From the NCBI GenBank assembly GCA_017651185.1, contig JAGCDJ010000019.1:265726-329725 (forward strand): a DNA stretch of 64,000 nt, written 5' to 3'. The notes under the pieces were generated by a model. It was not told the DNA's origin. It was given only the letters and a program-made list of their open reading frames with translations, and did not search any database. Within the stretch, counting starts at the first letter, position 1, and each line of letters begins with the position of its first letter. Positions 1,972 to 8,865 of the stretch are shown in pieces. A program made the translations under genes and the position numbers. Source of the stretch: Bacteroidales bacterium. Lineage in GTDB: Bacteria; Bacteroidota; Bacteroidia; Bacteroidales; ML635J-15.

Positions 1972-2125
1972 TGTGAAAAATTTTCCCCAAAAATAAGAAT
2001 AATTGATTTGCTATCCCACGCTGATTTGAAATAATAAGTAACAAAAATTTTAACAGGTGAGAAAGGGGGAAGAATAGGTGTAATTGAGTTAAATATACAA
2101 TAGTTGTTTGATGTAGAAAATCAAG

Positions 2126-2192
2126 ATTACGCCAAAAACCATTTCATATTTTGGCGTAAAGTGGCATTGACATATGAGATTGCGCCAAGATG
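2126..2192. repeat. 67-nt direct repeat, copy A (just 3' of the AAA+ ATPase gene)
   Basis: Hand alignment with 3657-3723 is ungapped with 57/67 identical positions. Contains TTACGCCAAAA / TTTTGGCGTAA inverted boxes and ATTGCGCCAAGATG. Confidence 0.8.
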
Positions 2193-3614
2193 CTATGCAA
2201 ATAGGTCGTCAAGAGTTACGACTTTCTGCAGTCGGCGTGAGTATAGGTTGTCTTGTAGTCCAGCAGCGGCTATCATTGTGAGCATTAACGATTTTCTTGT
2301 GCCAGTAGTCTTTCTAAATGTCTCTATTTTGTTGTGCAAGATGTTGTCGTAATCTTTTGTAATCTCAAATTCGTGGCGGGTATATTTCATTTCACAGATA
2401 TTTATTGTCTTATCAGCACGATCGATAAGCAAGTCAATCTGAGATCCTTTGCTTGTAGAGTCTCCTGTAAAACTCCAACTACAAGGTGTATTGCGTATGC
2501 CACTTATGCCTAATGCAGACAATATCATGTCAATGTGATGCAGACACAATATCTCGAAAGCATATCCGCACCAATTGGCGTATGATGGAGTTTCCTGCAT
2601 TTTTATCCAATATTGCCGTTGTGCAGAACTTTTGTCCTTCATATATTTAAAGTAGAACAAGGAGAATTGGTCAATAAGTTGATAAAGAGCATCTTTCTTT
2701 GTTTTGCCAAATGGTGTATAACTGCGGATGAACTCGCATTGTTCAAGTTCGCGTAGAGTAGTGGTGAAATTTCCGTTGTTTACGCTGCCGGTAGCTTTTA
2801 GTAGTTGTAGTCGCGTCATTCCCATTCCTTTAGAAGCAAGTGCGTTTACTATGGCAATGTGGTTGTTTGCCCGTTTGAACAATGAGGAATATAGGTTGTC
2901 AAACTCCATTGCAAGTTCGGCGCCACGCGAAAAACATAGAGCATCAATGTTTTGTGCTACGCTTTTGTCTTGTTCAAACAGAGTGAGATAGTATGGTATT
3001 CCGCCCATAGCCATGTAGCATTCGGCAATTTCTTCGCGCTCGTATCCGAATCCGTTGGTTTTGAAAAAACTTTCGCATTCGCGAAGCTTAAAAGGAGAAA
3101 CAAGTATCTGATGGGTAACTCTATTGTGAAGTCCGCCTCGGTTATTGATAATTTTGTTCAGTATCCACGATGTGGAAGAACCGCATACAATCAACTTTAT
3201 ATCAGTTCGGTACGATGCCCAACTATTCCAAAAGTGTTCCAGTGCGCTGACAAATCCGCTTCCTTTTCCATCCATCCATGGCATTTCGTCGATGAATATT
3301 ATTTTTGTGCATTTGTCAAGGCTGTCAAGATATTTTTCAAGCATTTGGAATGCGGAAAGCCAGTCCTTTGGAATGTCTGGACAATCGCAGTACCTTTGCA
3401 TAGCTAGCTGGAAGTTTTTTAGTTGTTCCTTGTTTGTAACATTTGCCATGCCTGTGATAGAGAATGCGAAATTCTGACCTAGTACTTGTTTTATCAGAAA
3501 TGTCTTTCCGACTCTGCGTCTGCCATATACGGCAATAAATTCCGACTTGTCCGAAGCTACGTATTGTAACAGACGTTTTTTTTCTGCTTCCCTCCCTATT
3601 AAAGTCTCTTTCAT
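2193..3614 (-). CDS. AAA+ ATPase (Arch_ATPase/ATPase_2-like) with C-terminal DUF234-type PD-(D/E)xK-like nuclease module
   Basis: Walker A VYGRRRVGKTF, Walker B IIFIDEMPWM, and C-terminal IDLLIDRADKTINICEMKY (D...E-x-K). I moved the start to the internal ATG (MKETLIGRE) because a TAACTTTG -7 box lies inside the longer track ORF. Confidence 0.8.
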   Translation of the reverse strand: MKETLIGREAEKKRLLQYVASDKSEFIAVYGRRRVGKTFLIKQVLGQNFAFSITGMANVTNKEQLKNFQLAMQRYCDCPDIPKDWLSAFQMLEKYLDSLDKCTKIIFIDEMPWMDGKGSGFVSALEHFWNSWASYRTDIKLIVCGSSTSWILNKIINNRGGLHNRVTHQILVSPFKLRECESFFKTNGFGYEREEIAECYMAMGGIPYYLTLFEQDKSVAQNIDALCFSRGAELAMEFDNLYSSLFKRANNHIAIVNALASKGMGMTRLQLLKATGSVNNGNFTTTLRELEQCEFIRSYTPFGKTKKDALYQLIDQFSLFYFKYMKDKSSAQRQYWIKMQETPSYANWCGYAFEILCLHHIDMILSALGISGIRNTPCSWSFTGDSTSKGSQIDLLIDRADKTINICEMKYTRHEFEITKDYDNILHNKIETFRKTTGTRKSLMLTMIAAAGLQDNLYSRRLQKVVTLDDLFA

Positions 3615-3635
3615 GTTGTGTTGTGTTTTGTGGCG

Positions 3636-3643
3636 CAAAGTTA
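3636..3643 (-). promoter_or_regulatory. Bacteroidetes -7 promoter box (TAACTTTG) for the AAA+ ATPase gene
   Basis: Plus-strand caaagtta reads TAACTTTG on the minus strand and matches the TAnnTTTG consensus. It sits 22 nt upstream of the ATG at 3614. Confidence 0.5.
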
Positions 3644-3656
3644 TAAAAAGTTTTAT

Positions 3657-3723
3657 ATTGCGCCAAGAACTATTTTATATTTTGGCGTAAAGTGATATGA
3701 ATATATAAGATTGCGCCAAGATG
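3657..3723. repeat. 67-nt direct repeat, copy B (just 5' of the AAA+ ATPase promoter)
   Basis: See copy A. Same order of boxes: ATTGCGCCAAGAAC, TTTTGGCGTAAAGTG, GATTGCGCCAAGATG. Confidence 0.8.
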
Positions 3724-3856
3724 AAGCAAGTTGCTTTTTTTGAATTATAAAACTTTATAACTGTTTAAAACCAGAAAATACAAGTAGCAGATGAACTTTT
3801 GCGGAAAATCTAACCTAATGTTTGTGGTGTGTTGCCATTGTTTCAAATATTTTTTC

Positions 3857-3864
3857 TAATTTTG
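3857..3864 (+). promoter_or_regulatory. -7 promoter box (TAATTTTG) for the DUF3791/DUF3990 triad
   Basis: Matches TAnnTTTG, 35 nt upstream of the ATG at 3899. Confidence 0.45.
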
Positions 3865-3898
3865 GCGGTGTAAAAATAAAATTGGTATTAATTGTATT

Positions 3899-4117
3899 AT
3901 GGACATTCGCGACAAGATAGAATACCTTGTGATTTTCATAGGAGAATTTGCTAGGCATCACAACATTAATGTTCGTGATACTTACCTGTATTTGCGAAAA
4001 TACAAGGCTTTGGATTTCTTGGAACAGCAGTACGATGTTGCCCATACTATGGGATTCCGTTATATGGTTGATGCAATGACAGATTACTGTAAACGAAACG
4101 GAGGATATTTGTCATGA
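3899..4117 (+). CDS. small DUF3791-like protein (triad 1, gene 1)
   Basis: 72 aa. Its stop overlaps the next start in an ATGA (4114-4117). It follows the same pattern as the 74-aa ORF at 20788-21012 (..KY..L.YLE...D..HT). Confidence 0.7.
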   Translation: MDIRDKIEYLVIFIGEFARHHNINVRDTYLYLRKYKALDFLEQQYDVAHTMGFRYMVDAMTDYCKRNGGYLS

Positions 4118-4590
4118 AGCTATATCACGGCACATACATAGATTTCGATACAATTGATCTCTCAATGTCAAACAAAGGCAAAGATTTTGGCAAGGGTTTC
4201 TATTTGTCTGACAATTATGAACAGGCTTTTCAATTAGCAACATTCAAGGCGATACAATTTAATGGAGAACCTAATGTCTTGACTTTTGATTTTGACGAAA
4301 CGGCCTTGACCAATGGAGAGTTGTCGTTTATGAAATTTGACGAGTATAGCCGCGAATGGGCTGACTTCATATTGAAAAACAGGCAGAACGAAATAGATGA
4401 GAATATTCATAGGTATGATGTAGTTTATGGTCCTATTGCCAATGACAAGGTCGGAGTTCAAATCCGCAACCTGATTGAGCAAAACATTGATATGAATCTG
4501 TTTTTGGAGCGACTTAAATATATGCACGGCATTACTTTCCAATATTTTTTCGGTACGGAAAAAGCAATTTCAAAACTTGTTAAGCTATGA
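4114..4590 (+). CDS. DUF3990-like protein (triad 1, gene 2); possible ADP-ribosyltransferase-fold enzyme
   Basis: 158 aa with MKLYHGT, FGKGFYLS, YEQA, EWADFIL and DVVYGPIANDKV. These are shared with the 161-aa ORF at 20306-20791. Confidence 0.7.
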   Translation: MKLYHGTYIDFDTIDLSMSNKGKDFGKGFYLSDNYEQAFQLATFKAIQFNGEPNVLTFDFDETALTNGELSFMKFDEYSREWADFILKNRQNEIDENIHRYDVVYGPIANDKVGVQIRNLIEQNIDMNLFLERLKYMHGITFQYFFGTEKAISKLVKL

Positions 4591-4802
4591 GCAATTTCGA
4601 ATATATGAACGAATGCACTGCAAGAGATGTAATTGCAATGTTGGTTAGAAAACAGAATATGCCCATATCAGACGCTATGGATTTGTTTTACAATTCCAAA
4701 ACCTTTGAAAACTTGAATAATCCGGAAACGGGTCTTTATTTTCAAAGTCCCGTTTACATTTACGATATATTAGAACAAGAATTAAAAACGAAAAAACAAT
4801 AA
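4587..4802 (+). CDS. small DUF3791-like protein (triad 1, gene 3)
   Basis: 71 aa. Its start overlaps the previous stop in an ATGA (4587-4590). Resembles the 75-aa ORF at 20082-20309 (ISDA...Y.S.TY..L). Confidence 0.65.
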   Translation: MSNFEYMNECTARDVIAMLVRKQNMPISDAMDLFYNSKTFENLNNPETGLYFQSPVYIYDILEQELKTKKQ

Positions 4803-4863
4803 TGTAGAGATTTAAAACATATTATTAACCAAAGCATTAGCTATTATTCGCATTTAAATCAAA

Positions 4864-5040
4864 AGCGTCGGAAACTGATGATTGAAAATATCGGATAAAG
4901 CAATTTCACGGAAGCCAAGGTTCCGTATGTATCAGGTAAAGTTAATGTTCACACCATGGTGTGGGCTTGACTACTGATACTGCGGGGTTCATCCGACGCT
5001 CCTCGTGAATGCGATAGAAAGGCTCGCACCTTTCTTTTGT
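4864..5040 (+). ncRNA. candidate structured RNA or leader (unassigned family) ending in a terminator-like hairpin
   Basis: The ORF track lists no ORF in 4803-5083. A 9-bp closing helix AGCGTCGGA (4864-4872) / TCCGACGCT (4992-5000) encloses three elements: hairpin ACGGAA-GCCAAGG-TTCCGT (4908-4926), helix GTATCAG (4929-4935) / CTGATAC (4974-4980), and the palindrome CACACCATGGTGTG (4950-4963). It is followed by AGAAAGG-CTCGCA-CCTTTCT + TTTGT (5016-5040). Confidence 0.4.
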
Positions 5041-5049
5041 CCCGATAAG

Positions 5050-5081
5050 TGATTGATAGCATTGCAAAAAACTATCAATCA
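5050..5081. promoter_or_regulatory. 10-bp perfect inverted repeat immediately upstream of the methyltransferase start codon
   Basis: TGATTGATAG (5050-5059) and CTATCAATCA (5072-5081) are separated by 12 nt, and the ATG is at 5084. This could be an operator or a start-occluding hairpin. Confidence 0.4.
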
Positions 5082-5083
5082 AG

Positions 5084-6115
5084 ATGGCAGGAAATAAAAG
5101 TTTACATGCCGCCAGTAAGGCAAAGGAAGATGAATTTTATACTGAACTTTCAGACATTGAAAACGAATTAAAACACTATAAAGAACATTTTAGAGGGAAA
5201 ATAATTCTATGCAACTGTGACGATCCGAGAGTAAGCAATTTCTTCCATTATTTCAGTTATAATTTTGAAGTTCTTGGATTAAAGAAACTGATTACAACTT
5301 GTTACAAGAGCCAAAATCGCGACCTTTTCAGTCAAAATGATTCCGAAAAGGCAATATGGTTGGAGTATTTTGGAGATCGCAATGGTAATCGCGTTCCCGA
5401 CCCCGAAGAAATTGGCATACATTATCTTAATGGCGATGGTGATTTTCGTTCAGCGGAATGTATAGAATTGCTAAAAGAAGCCGATATTGTAGTTACCAAT
5501 CCTCCATTCTCGTTATTTAGGGAATATGTGGCGCAACTGATTAAATATGACAAGAAATTTATAATATTAGGCAATCAAAATGCAATAACATATAAAGAGA
5601 TTTTTGCATATATAAAGACAAATCAATTATGGTTAGGTAGTACATTGTCTTTTGCAAAATTTAAAGTACCAGATTACTATGAAGCGCGAGCGACAAGATT
5701 TTGGATTGACGAGTCTGGACAAAAGTGGCGAAGCATGGGAAATATCTGCTGGTTTACAAATCTAGATATAGCCAAACGACATGAGGAAATAATTCTTTAT
5801 AAGTCTTATACCTCAGAAGAATATCCAAAATATGATAATTATAATGCAATAAACATTAATAAAGTGTCTGAAATACCAATGGATTATTATGGTGTAATGG
5901 GTGTTCCTATTACTTTTTTGGACAAATACAACCCAGATCAATTCGAAATTGTTGGAGATAGCCGATATCACGATGGACAAAGCGAAGCGGACGACATTAA
6001 TATAATCGGTGGAAAATTGTTATACAGGCGTATCCTTATCCGCCGCAGACAAAATCCATACGGACAATCCGAATCGCAAATGTCAATGGCGGCTGACAAG
6101 GGTGTGGAAATTTAA
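5084..6115 (+). CDS. EcoRI-family N6-adenine DNA methyltransferase
   Basis: 343 aa. The N-terminus AKEDEFYTELSDIENELKHYKEHFRGKIILCNCDDP and the catalytic VVTNPPFSLFREYV (NPPF) are as I recall for the EcoRI_methylase family. Confidence 0.8.
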   Translation: MAGNKSLHAASKAKEDEFYTELSDIENELKHYKEHFRGKIILCNCDDPRVSNFFHYFSYNFEVLGLKKLITTCYKSQNRDLFSQNDSEKAIWLEYFGDRNGNRVPDPEEIGIHYLNGDGDFRSAECIELLKEADIVVTNPPFSLFREYVAQLIKYDKKFIILGNQNAITYKEIFAYIKTNQLWLGSTLSFAKFKVPDYYEARATRFWIDESGQKWRSMGNICWFTNLDIAKRHEEIILYKSYTSEEYPKYDNYNAININKVSEIPMDYYGVMGVPITFLDKYNPDQFEIVGDSRYHDGQSEADDINIIGGKLLYRRILIRRRQNPYGQSESQMSMAADKGVEI

Positions 6116-6202
6116 AATGGTAAATTATATTATTCCCAAAATTGTAAAAATAGGAATAAAACAATTATAAAATAACATTGATAACAATAAAATAGGAACA
6201 AT

Positions 6203-7285
6203 ATGCAAATCGAACTACACAAAATTTCAGTCCGCGACCTTACAAACGGCTATACCGACAATGCTGAAAAAGGTGTGACCGCATACGGTGGAAAACTGGA
6301 TGTACGCCCACCGTACCAACGCGAATTCGTATATGGCGAAAAACAGCGCAATGCTGTGATTGATACTCTTATGCAAGGTTTTCCTTTAAATGTAATGTAC
6401 TGGGCAACCCGCGAGGATGGCACCTACGAAATCATTGACGGTCAACAGCGTACAATCAGCATTTGCCAGTATGTGAGCGGAGATTTTGCCTTCGATATGC
6501 GCTATTTCCACAATTTGGAGAAAGATGAAAGGGAGCAAATTCTAAACTATGAACTGCAAATCTACATTTGCACTGGCACCGACAGCGAAAAACTGAAATG
6601 GTTCAAGACAATAAACATTGCAGGCGAGAAACTTACCGACCAGGAACTGCGCAACGCAGTATATGCCGGTTCGTGGGTAAGCGATGCCAAGCGGTATTTC
6701 AGCAAAAACGGCGCACCAGCCACAAAAATAGGTAGCGACTATCTGTCTGGGTCTGCAATTCGTCAAGAATATTTGGAAACGGCGATATCTTGGATTTCAA
6801 AGGGCAACATTGAAATTTATATGGGCAACCATCAGCACGACCCCAACGCCATTGCACTATGGAACCATTTCAACAGCGTAATTAACTGGGTAAAAGCAAT
6901 ATTCCCGAAGTACCGCAAGGAAATGAAAGGTGTAGAATGGGGAAATTTGTACGAACTGTATAGCAAGGATACTTGGGATGCTTCCGAAATGGAGAAAGAG
7001 GTTGCGCGACTAATGGCCGACAGCGATGTGAAAAAGAAAAAAGGCATCTACTCCTATGTTTTCGACCACGACGAACACCATCTGGACATTCGTGCATTCG
7101 ATGACAACACCAAACGTGAAGTTTATGAGAAACAAGGCGGTTATTGCAAAGTCTGCGGCAAAATCTTCAAAATAGAAGAAATGGAGGCCGACCACATAAC
7201 TCCGTGGAGCAAAGGCGGTCACACAGTTGCCGAAAACTGCCAGATGCTATGCAAGGAATGTAATAGACGTAAAAGCGGAAAATAA
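6203..7285 (+). CDS. DUF262 (ParB/Srx-like, DGQQR) domain fused to a C-terminal HNH endonuclease
   Basis: 360 aa with IIDGQQRTISI near the N-terminus. The C-terminus CKVCGK...EADHITPWSKGGHTVAENCQMLCKECNRRK is a CxxC...H-N-H...CxxC pattern. Confidence 0.8.
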   Translation: MQIELHKISVRDLTNGYTDNAEKGVTAYGGKLDVRPPYQREFVYGEKQRNAVIDTLMQGFPLNVMYWATREDGTYEIIDGQQRTISICQYVSGDFAFDMRYFHNLEKDEREQILNYELQIYICTGTDSEKLKWFKTINIAGEKLTDQELRNAVYAGSWVSDAKRYFSKNGAPATKIGSDYLSGSAIRQEYLETAISWISKGNIEIYMGNHQHDPNAIALWNHFNSVINWVKAIFPKYRKEMKGVEWGNLYELYSKDTWDASEMEKEVARLMADSDVKKKKGIYSYVFDHDEHHLDIRAFDDNTKREVYEKQGGYCKVCGKIFKIEEMEADHITPWSKGGHTVAENCQMLCKECNRRKSGK

Positions 7286-7301
7286 GGATAATTGAAAAAA
7301 A

Positions 7302-7342
7302 GGCGTCAGCCATTGAAACAGGCGATATCCTACAGAACGGCG
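7302..7342. repeat. 41-nt direct repeat, copy 1 (REP-like intergenic element)
   Basis: GGCGTCAGCCATTGAAACAGGCGATATCCTACAGAACGGCG. Differs at one position from 7462-7502. Confidence 0.85.
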
Positions 7343-7461
7343 TACTTCGGCTGTGCTCACTTCGACTTCGCTCAGCGCATCGCAGCACAAGTAGTCCTCA
7401 AGGAGTTAAACCAGAAACCAAGAAACGGGCGAAGCCCTTCAAACAACATAAACTAAGAAAC

Positions 7462-7502
7462 GGCGTCAGCCATTGAAACGGGCGATATCCTACAGAACGG
7501 CG
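7462..7502. repeat. 41-nt direct repeat, copy 2
   Basis: GGCGTCAGCCATTGAAACGGGCGATATCCTACAGAACGGCG. A 119-nt GC-rich spacer with short hairpins lies between the copies. Confidence 0.85.
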
Positions 7503-7623: not shown

Positions 7624-8865
7624 ATGGCAACAGCAAGTGAACTGAAAGTAAAAGTAGCAAAGATTTCGACAATTGTTGAATACCTTGAAGATGAACAGAT
7701 AAACCAGATAGAAAAGGACATTTTGCTACAGGCGGTAAGGGAATTGTACTCGGATATATTGGTGACGGATACAACAACCGTCGTAGAAAACTCAAAGTCA
7801 GAAGATGAACATGTTAGTGAACCAAAAGAGGCCGTTTCGGAACATGTTGATGAAAATGTCGCAGAAACTGTGGCTGCCGCTGTTGTTCCGCCCGTTATTT
7901 CAGTTGCGTTTGATGATGGCGAGTTCGACTTCTCGGATTTGCTGAAGGATAAAACAACGGAAGAAAATGATGAAGTTCAGGAGACAAATGTTGAAACGGA
8001 AATTCCAGTAGAAAATGTCGCTACTGAAGAAATGCCAGCTGAAGAGGAAGTTCCTGTCGAAGAACCAGAACCCGAAGAGGAAAACGAGGAACCTGAAAGT
8101 GTAGAAGAATTTGAGGATCCAGAAAATATCGAAGAAGTAGATTACGAGGAGGAGTTTGAAGAAGATGAAGATGACAGCGAAGAATTGGAGGAGGCAGAAC
8201 CAGAAACTTCAGAAGAAGTTGAAGAAGAAGTTCAGGAATCGGAATCAAATTTTGAAGAAACTGTTACTGGTGATACAGAAATAAACTATAGTTTCAACGA
8301 GGATACTTTGCAAGATGAACAACCAACTGTCGAAGAAGAACCGCAGATAGAAGAACCGATTGTAAACGAACCGGTAGTAGAAGAAACTACAGTAGTTGAA
8401 GAAGAACCTGTCGTTGAGGAAAAACCAATTGTAGATGAGCCTCAAGTTGTAGCTGAAATTCCGACTATCGAAGAACCAACCGTTGAAACTCCGCAGAATG
8501 TTGAAGAAAAACCAGTTGAGCAAGAAAAAGCAGAATCGACTCACATAACCCTTGGCGAACAGCTTGGTCAGTCGCGCCAATCATCGCTTAACGACAAGTT
8601 TGCTAGCAACAAACCTCTTGAGGGAGGCATTGGTCTAAAGCCAATTTCGGACATTAGGTTGGCAATACCTTTGGGCGAAAGATTCAGATTCACTCGTATG
8701 TTGTTCTCGGGCAACGGACCTGCTTTCGATTCAACTGTGGCTAAACTCAATGAAATGTCAAGCATCGAGGAGGCCGATAACTATGTGCGCACAAACTTCA
8801 GCTGGGACATGGATTCTCCTGTAGTTGCCGACTTTATGAATATTGTTCGCAGAAGATATTTGTAA
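7624..8865 (+). CDS. hypothetical protein with a long Glu-rich low-complexity core
   Basis: 413 aa. Ordered N- and C-terminal regions flank a roughly 230-aa acidic region (EEVPVEEPEPEEENEEPE..., EEPIVNEPVVEE...). Confidence 0.6.
   Translation: MATASELKVKVAKISTIVEYLEDEQINQIEKDILLQAVRELYSDILVTDTTTVVENSKSEDEHVSEPKEAVSEHVDENVAETVAAAVVPPVISVAFDDGEFDFSDLLKDKTTEENDEVQETNVETEIPVENVATEEMPAEEEVPVEEPEPEEENEEPESVEEFEDPENIEEVDYEEEFEEDEDDSEELEEAEPETSEEVEEEVQESESNFEETVTGDTEINYSFNEDTLQDEQPTVEEEPQIEEPIVNEPVVEETTVVEEEPVVEEKPIVDEPQVVAEIPTIEEPTVETPQNVEEKPVEQEKAESTHITLGEQLGQSRQSSLNDKFASNKPLEGGIGLKPISDIRLAIPLGERFRFTRMLFSGNGPAFDSTVAKLNEMSSIEEADNYVRTNFSWDMDSPVVADFMNIVRRRYL

Follow-up and report, generated by a model that had tools for sequence, protein, structure and literature searches.

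A three-gene locus of a Bacteroidales bacterium belongs to the defence candidate family PDC-M13 and encodes a predicted ADP-ribosyltransferase-fold protein with two small partners

CmdTAC is a three-gene anti-phage system in which an ADP-ribosyltransferase (ART) effector is kept inactive by two smaller partners (PMC11618068), and in the RES-Xre and ParS-ParT systems a compact operon pairs a small ART-fold toxin with a partner that neutralises it. The DUF3990 domain has been described as the variable C-terminal toxin domain of type VI secretion system (T6SS) Rhs effectors, Serratia Rhs5 and Enterobacter RhsA (PMC4524185, PMC10763514). A free-standing DUF3990 protein is also part of PDC-M13, one of 145 untested phage defence candidates (PDCs) that were nominated since their homologues are embedded in BREX, DISARM or type I restriction-modification (R-M) operons (Payne et al., bioRxiv 10.1101/2024.01.29.577857), and a survey of rumen genomes reported 3324 PDC-M13 loci (PMC13356809). 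Here, a triad of genes, designated A, B and C (positions 3899-4802), was analysed in a 64,000 nucleotide (nt) stretch of DNA from a Bacteroidales bacterium (assembly GCA_017651185.1, contig JAGCDJ010000019.1, positions 265,726 to 329,725 of the forward strand), referred to as the window. The triad is a member of PDC-M13, from which it shows no difference, and is a typical representative of a known, abundant and experimentally untouched candidate family, without a new principle.

Gene A (3899-4117, + strand) encodes a DUF3791 protein of 72 amino acids (aa), gene B (4114-4590, + strand) a DUF3990 protein of 158 aa, and gene C (4587-4802, + strand) a predicted all-helical protein of 71 aa. The three genes are adjacent on the same strand and each matches one PADLOC model of PDC-M13 in the catalogued order, namely PDLC04435 (PDC-M13A, E 1.2e-21), PDLC04438 (PDC-M13B, E 1.1e-39) and PDLC04444 (PDC-M13C, E 7.7e-21). 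Membership was assigned from these three protein-model matches and the contiguity of the genes, without the PADLOC system-level rule file; among all PADLOC models, the triad proteins matched those of PDC-M13, M10 and M42 only, and NCBIfam contained no model for A, B or C. The first-pass annotation of this DNA, which a model made from the letters, had correctly described the three co-directional open reading frames (ORFs) and their overlaps, and did not mention that the triad was already catalogued. Both junctions were read directly as ATGA, in which the stop codon of one gene and the start codon of the next share 4 nt (A/B at 4114-4117 and B/C at 4587-4590, both + strand), an arrangement indicative of translational coupling in an operon of three tightly coupled genes. 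The sequence TAATTTTG (3857-3864, + strand), which fits the pattern TAnnTTTG, is a candidate Bacteroidota -7 promoter box and lies 35 nt ahead of the start codon of gene A. It is the single match to this pattern between 3600 and 5100, with none inside the triad, which would fit, weakly, one transcript for all three genes; since the pattern occurs 38 times on the + strand across the 64 kb, the box is weak promoter evidence. Rfam, tRNA and terminator scans around the triad locus returned nothing relevant.

B matches Pfam DUF3990 (PF13151; E 7e-43, 146.3 bits against a cut-off of 32.2) over residues 1-155 and profile positions 1-150 of 152, confirming the family named in the first-pass annotation, and DUF3990 is a member of the Pfam ART clan, as that annotation had supposed (PMC7955679). 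A sub-threshold match was seen to Pfam ART-PolyVal (PF18760; E 1.7e-5, 26 bits relative to a gathering score of 31.2). The PDB returned noise only when searched with the sequences and profiles of A, B and C, and PHROGs yielded two weak matches to B, both of unknown function. An AlphaFold2 model of B was obtained at high confidence (pLDDT 96.2, pTM 0.89), and the top 25 Foldseek matches of this model in the PDB are all ART-fold proteins, with the RES toxin entries 9r35 and 6gw6 as the best (E 2.4e-3, prob 0.99, TM 0.46), and ParT, exotoxin A, tankyrases, PARP1, diphtheria toxin, Tpt1 and RhsP2 among the further matches. Among viral models (BFVD), the first match is one close homologue (E 2e-12), followed by ART-PolyVal domains (E 2.5e-6, TM 0.54). 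On this confident model, B is predicted to be an ART-fold protein, and its modest scores against solved structures suggest a divergent, minimal ART.

The motifs listed in the first-pass annotation, LYHGT (residues 3-7), FGKGFYLS (25-32), YEQA (35-38) and DVVYGPIANDKV (102-113), are all present in B. Three of their residues are candidate catalytic residues: H5 of the HGT motif (4126-4128, + strand), Y30 of the GxGFYLS motif (4201-4203, + strand) and D102 of the RYD motif (4417-4419, + strand). In an alignment of 48 homologues with 32-79% identity these three are invariant, together with G6, D24, F25, G26, A38, W82, R90 and L155. Motifs I to III of PARPs read HGS or HGT, YFA or YLS, and a Glu-ending motif III such as YNE, and the HGT, YLS and RYD of B line up with them (PMC7955679). 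In the model, H5-G6-T7 lies in strand 1 (residues 2-7) and Y30-L31-S32 in strand 2 (29-32), and D102, the candidate counterpart of the catalytic Glu in H-Y-E ARTs, directly precedes strand 5 (103-107). This fit suggests that B is an H-Y-D variant of the H-Y-E clade; of the H-Y-E assignment proposed earlier, the His and the Tyr hold, and the candidate third residue is acidic but is Asp.

Compared with members of the H-Y-E clade (PARPs, diphtheria toxin and exotoxin A), B shares the HG[ST] and Y[FL][AST] motifs and has an acidic residue next to strand 5 as candidate third member of the site; PARP6/8 carry HGS/YLS and PARP3/14/15 carry HGT, relative to HGT and YLS in B. It differs from them in having Asp for Glu and a much smaller, minimal domain, at 7-15% identity and TM 0.37-0.47. 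H-Y-D ARTs have precedent in Arr and in Pfam Tox-ART-HYD1. By both sequence and predicted structure, the closest named family is ART-PolyVal, whose N-terminal H-G and GxGxY motifs are also those of B. ART-PolyVal is, however, a domain of giant, multi-domain polyvalent proteins of phages and conjugative elements, whereas B is a stand-alone protein of 158 aa accompanied by two partner genes; to our knowledge, ART-PolyVal has no established function. The best solved matches to B are RES and ParT (6gw6, 9r35, 6d0h; prob 0.99 for RES and 0.72-0.75 for ParT, TM 0.44-0.47), but B carries H-Y-D instead of the R-E-S signature and has no Pfam RES match. Membership of B in the RES, ParT, DarT or CmdT families was considered and rejected, as no hidden Markov model matches to these were found.

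Of the two flanking ORFs, both of which had been labelled DUF3791 in the first-pass annotation, only A retains that label. It matches Pfam DUF3791 (PF12668) across profile positions 1-60 of 60 (E 2.4e-21, 75.9 bits, cut-off 25), whereas C had no Pfam match at E<=0.01, so that its DUF3791 label is unsupported. Within the A family, F17, H49 and G68 are invariant and Y31, Y45, T50, C64 and G69 near-invariant, with the conserved polar motifs YDxxHT and, at the C-terminus, CxRxGG; a sequence search found no PDB relative of A. C was modelled by AlphaFold2 (pLDDT 93.6) as four helices (residues 3-22, 27-35, 38-43 and 55-70), and a structure search of this model against the PDB gave no fold match (best E 3.9). 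A confident model with no PDB neighbour leaves a helix-turn-helix (HTH) or known antitoxin fold unsupported for C. The C family has the conserved motif TGLYFQSPxY and invariant S37 and Y57.

The TGLYFQSP motif of C (residues 47-55, 4725-4751) resembles the TEV protease site ENLYFQS and is a trap for automated annotation. A match of the C profile to MarR entries of the PDB (e.g. 5ffx) was discarded as an artefact of this kind, in which GLYFQS aligns with the expression-tag remnant ENLYFQS.

A and C as paralogues, both of DUF3791, could not be demonstrated by BLASTP, hhalign, Pfam or PADLOC. Direct BLASTP comparison of the two gave E 0.033 over 25 residues, profile-profile comparison by hhalign gave probabilities of 15% and 2%, three of 67 members of the C family matched PF12668 at E<=1 (best 0.0043), and no PADLOC model was matched by both proteins. 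Both proteins are about 70 aa and the two weak alignments are in register, a faint signal that they may be remote paralogues. C is a separate small all-helical family, not detectably DUF3791.

Conservation of the triad was assessed in 77 loci, consisting of the best 80 genomic matches, after removal of loci in which B was disrupted or incomplete, together with two plasmid loci and that of the window. The upstream ORF belongs to the A family in 75 of 76 loci and the downstream ORF to the C family in 76 of 77, and the ATGA junction is present between A and B in 65 of the 76 related loci and between B and C in 64 of 77. The three genes are therefore linked far more than by chance. In 61 of 62 loci, conservation is higher for B than for A and C; mean identities to the window proteins are 54% for B, 39% for A and 38% for C. 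Three of the properties whose absence the first-pass annotation had named as evidence against its proposal, ART likeness, conserved candidate residues and co-occurrence of the genes, were found. In four of the 80 genomic loci (L019, L036, L059 and L064) B was either truncated or interrupted by a stop or frameshift, which could reflect decay of a toxin or an assembly error in metagenome-assembled genomes (MAGs).

Relatives of B form 2088 clusters at the 50% identity level, and at least 577 loci were found in species-representative genomes. The hosts of the triad are mainly Bacteroidales and also include Treponema, Opitutales, Firmicutes and Moraxella, and one genome may hold several copies, as in Hallella absiana (L012, L040), where three triads are present and two of these are separated by 3 kb. 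Among the 128 genes directly flanking the triad in 64 loci, neighbours were heterogeneous and mostly housekeeping, with no Pfam family seen more than three times, which argues that the module is a mobile cassette acting autonomously and does not reside constantly in defence islands. The idea that the triad is always in defence islands was therefore rejected, R-M or candidate-defence matches being a minority of these neighbours; the statement of the first-pass annotation that the triad sits in a cluster of defence-type genes holds in the window, where a PDC-S27 gene, a methyltransferase and a restriction endonuclease (REase) are adjacent, but this is a minority context among relatives.

The order of the three genes varies by cyclic permutation only. 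A-B-C is seen in the window, B-C-A in Moraxella, and C-A-B and A-B-C-A in IMG/VR, with no A-C-B or other non-cyclic order among the IMG/VR loci (L087-L161), L001 and L083; the A-B-C-A arrangement looks like a duplication intermediate. The B-C-A version lies on a Moraxella osloensis plasmid (NZ_CP014236.1; L083, 3498-4425), where it separates the hsdM and hsdS genes in a type I R-M operon and has 4-nt overlaps at all junctions; this is the kind of embedding used to nominate PDCs. Single-chain B-C fusions were found in 13 of 65 full-length B cluster representatives and A-B fusions in none of the 65. Several of the B-C fusions recur in independent samples, and one retains an upstream A with a 4-nt overlap. 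On plasmid pBF9343, a C-A fusion of 149 aa precedes B. The fusions, together with the gene orders, place C adjacent to both B and A.

The reading we favour, and to which we give about an even chance of being correct, is that the triad is a three-component conflict module in which a NAD+-using toxic effector, B, is restrained by its two partners, following toxin-antitoxin or abortive-infection logic. The idea of a toxin with an antitoxin or adaptor, raised in the first-pass annotation, is plausible in the same sense. B would be a cytoplasmic enzyme with an H-Y-D version of the PARP/diphtheria-toxin type NAD+ site (H5, Y30 and D102), and A and C would be small helical partners, produced in fixed proportion with B via the ATGA overlaps, of which C would contact B directly and A would act together with C. 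In the normal cell, A and C would hold B inactive; phage infection or loss of the element may then be the trigger that frees or activates B, which would consume NAD+ or ADP-ribosylate an essential target, and growth would stop.

This reading is proposed because of the ART fold and its conserved site, the use of DUF3990 as an Rhs toxin tip, the obligate three-part unit with its overlaps and fusions, and the earlier nomination of PDC-M13 through guilt-by-embedding. Behaviour like that of toxin-antitoxin or defence systems is proposed because of the varied chromosomal contexts, the occurrence of homologues on 87 plasmids, the hsdM/hsdS embedding, the multi-copy genome and the stronger conservation of B. 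With the Rhs effectors, B shares the Pfam domain, which has the position of the toxic tip there and is followed on the Rhs side by a downstream immunity gene; the Rhs domains are exported as part of fusions with Rhs/PAAR delivery modules, whereas B is free-standing and predicted to be intracellular. The mechanism would be analogous to those of CmdTAC, RES-Xre and ParST. In function, CmdTAC comes closest to such an ART module of three parts, by analogy only and not by membership, since there is no PADLOC CmdTAC match in the triad. CmdC is a SecB-like chaperone, whereas C is modelled as an all-alpha, four-helix protein without a fold match. In RES-Xre and ParS-ParT the partner is one antitoxin with an Xre-HTH and a toxin-binding domain, in contrast to two helical proteins of about 70 aa in the triad, and no Pfam RES or Xre match was found in A, B or C.

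Several observations weigh against this reading. The likeness of B to solved ARTs is moderate (TM ~0.46, best E 2e-3), and the acidic residue of its motif III is Asp, not Glu. PDB sequence and profile searches with A and C, and the structure search with C, revealed no recognisable antitoxin, HTH or chaperone fold. Approximately one tenth of the flanking genes in the 64 loci match R-M or candidate-defence models, an estimate from family counts, and our literature search found no experimental paper on DUF3990, DUF3791, PF13151, PF12668 or PDC-M13. Covalent B-C fusions, in approximately 20% of clusters, are a poor fit to C as a labile, degradable antitoxin, and their frequency suggests that C is more like a regulatory or sensor domain, the role that the partner has in fused toxin-antitoxins such as CapRel.

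The same fusions bear on the alternative that survives best, which we nevertheless consider unlikely, that A and C are positive subunits acting in targeting, specificity or folding. B would then be harmless to its own cell, with the complex ADP-ribosylating the DNA, RNA or protein of an invader, or with A and C needed for substrate recognition, and there would be no neutralisation step. The B-C and C-A fusions suggest a permanent holo-complex of this type, the YDxxHT and CxRxGG motifs of A and the TGLYFQSPxY motif of C could form binding sites, and recurrent linkage to R-M genes would suit an accessory enzyme. However, the catalytic domain serves alone as a toxin tip in Rhs effectors, some distant homologues have no detectable A and C or have a different, acidic partner, and A and C evolve faster than B, as is typical of neutralisers or sensors in an arms race.

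Two sets of these distant homologues were seen. Geobacillus virus E3 gp30 (L085, 3468-4076) and a Megamonas plasmid gene (L084, 1548-2117) encode DUF3990 proteins of 189-202 aa with approximately 33% identity, and neither has a detectable A or C beside it. In about 28 of 75 IMG/VR loci (L096, L101-L108, L120, L124-L134, L138-L142 and L151-L157), a distant DUF3990 (B at about 4001-4480) is followed, within 4 nt or, in one locus, after 41 nt, by an Asp/Glu-rich protein of about 180 aa with no Pfam or PADLOC match. This is a different, two-gene architecture, in which the acidic partner is possibly a nucleic-acid-mimic immunity protein.

The distribution on mobile elements relates to a second alternative, in our view improbable, that the module is a counter-defence or establishment factor with which mobile elements, on entry of the plasmid or phage, modify a host defence or other host factor through B, as proposed for ART-PolyVal. 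Homologues of B are present on 87 plasmids, including 28 conjugative and 9 mobilizable ones; on pBF9343 the module lies beside tra genes and a zeta toxin gene, and on Clostridium botulinum pCLI a homologue adjoins the rep gene. ART-PolyVal domains are, after one close homologue, the best named viral structural neighbours of B, and a few phages encode a homologue, e.g. Geobacillus virus E3 with gp30. Viruses seldom carry the family, with six matches in 50,697 phage records and 75 loci, all distant, in 2.9 million IMG/VR contigs, compared with the matches in species-representative genomes given above; close relatives lie on chromosomes, dispersed among housekeeping genes, and the copy found inside a type I R-M operon points to defence and not to counter-defence.

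The least probable alternative, and a very improbable one, is that B is a small-molecule or housekeeping ART (e.g. for antibiotic inactivation, as Arr with rifampin) or a dead NAD+/ADP-ribose-binding scaffold, with no role in conflict: B is small and acidic (pI 4.9), it has H-Y-D instead of H-Y-E, the Arr triad is H-Y-D and one weak BFVD match is to a rifampin ART (E 0.09), but this leaves unexplained the two obligate partners, the plasmid, R-M-embedded and multi-copy distribution and the Rhs toxin-tip use, B has no Pfam Arr match, and the strict invariance of H5, Y30 and D102 speaks against a dead enzyme. Positive cofactors, anti-defence and a small-molecule or inactive ART are each less well supported than a toxic effector.

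A bolder form of the toxic-effector proposal, which we put forward as a possibility that is rather doubtful, is that PDC-M13 is a new tripartite immune module, in which the unrelated helical proteins A and C would jointly sense infection and gate a minimal H-Y-D ART with a target or chemistry unlike those of DarT, CmdT, RES and ParT. PDC-M13 would then rank among the commonest uncharacterised defence systems in Bacteroidales of the gut and rumen.

In the window, the triad is part of a block of defence-type genes with a thymidine kinase gene directly upstream of it. The first gene of the block (2193-3638, - strand) encodes a 481 aa ATPase_2 protein, which matches Pfam ATPase_2 and the PADLOC single-gene candidate PDC-S27 (PDLC04984, E 1.2e-200); it is divergent from the triad and not part of it. 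Downstream, and likewise not part of the triad, are genes for an EcoRI-like N6-adenine methyltransferase (5084-6115, + strand; Pfam and PADLOC) and a nuclease (6203-7285, + strand), which according to Pfam and PADLOC form a type II R-M pair (5084-7285, + strand). The nuclease combines a ParB-like DUF262 (GmrSD_N) domain with a C-terminal HNH domain and is matched along its whole length by a PADLOC type II REase model (E 7.5e-135), which suggests an REase architecture that is unusual yet catalogued. G+C content is approximately 33-38% over roughly 2000-6200, compared with approximately 44-49% in the flanks.

Positions 3906-7287, which cover the triad and the R-M pair, are colinear, at 67-78% DNA identity, with two Bacteroidales MAG contigs (L003 and L004), the two nearest relatives with sufficient flanking sequence, both of which carry the downstream R-M pair. 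L004 does not share the PDC-S27 ATPase gene, and L003 ends before the ATPase region. From this alignment, the triad and the EcoRI-like methyltransferase/DUF262+HNH pair seem to travel together.

Direct repeats were observed at several positions of the islet. The PDC-S27 gene is flanked on both sides by a 67-nt repeat (2126-2192 and 3657-3723, 85% identical) that contains a CGCCAAAA...TTTTGGCG palindrome, and a third, partial copy (3844-3867), located just upstream of gene A, contains the TAATTTTG box; the repeat segment containing this box recurs at 2133-2156 and 3664-3687. The arrangement of the copies suggests that genes were inserted as cassettes, or that a regulatory or recombination site is shared. 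A 55-nt repeat (7288-7342 and 7448-7502, 89% identical) comes right after the REase gene, where the low-GC islet has its right edge, and the ORF that directly follows the islet (7624-8865, 413 aa) has an extremely acidic, low-complexity, Glu/Val/Pro-rich central stretch.

The value of the locus is as a clean, compact and testable example of its family, with defined candidate catalytic residues (H5, Y30 and D102). If the proposed mechanism holds, an ART-based three-component effector system would be added to the known bacterial immune or addiction modules, and the target of its ADP-ribosylation may be new. Given the abundance of the family and its presence on common Bacteroides conjugative plasmids, such a system would be relevant to phage-host dynamics in the gut and to plasmid maintenance.

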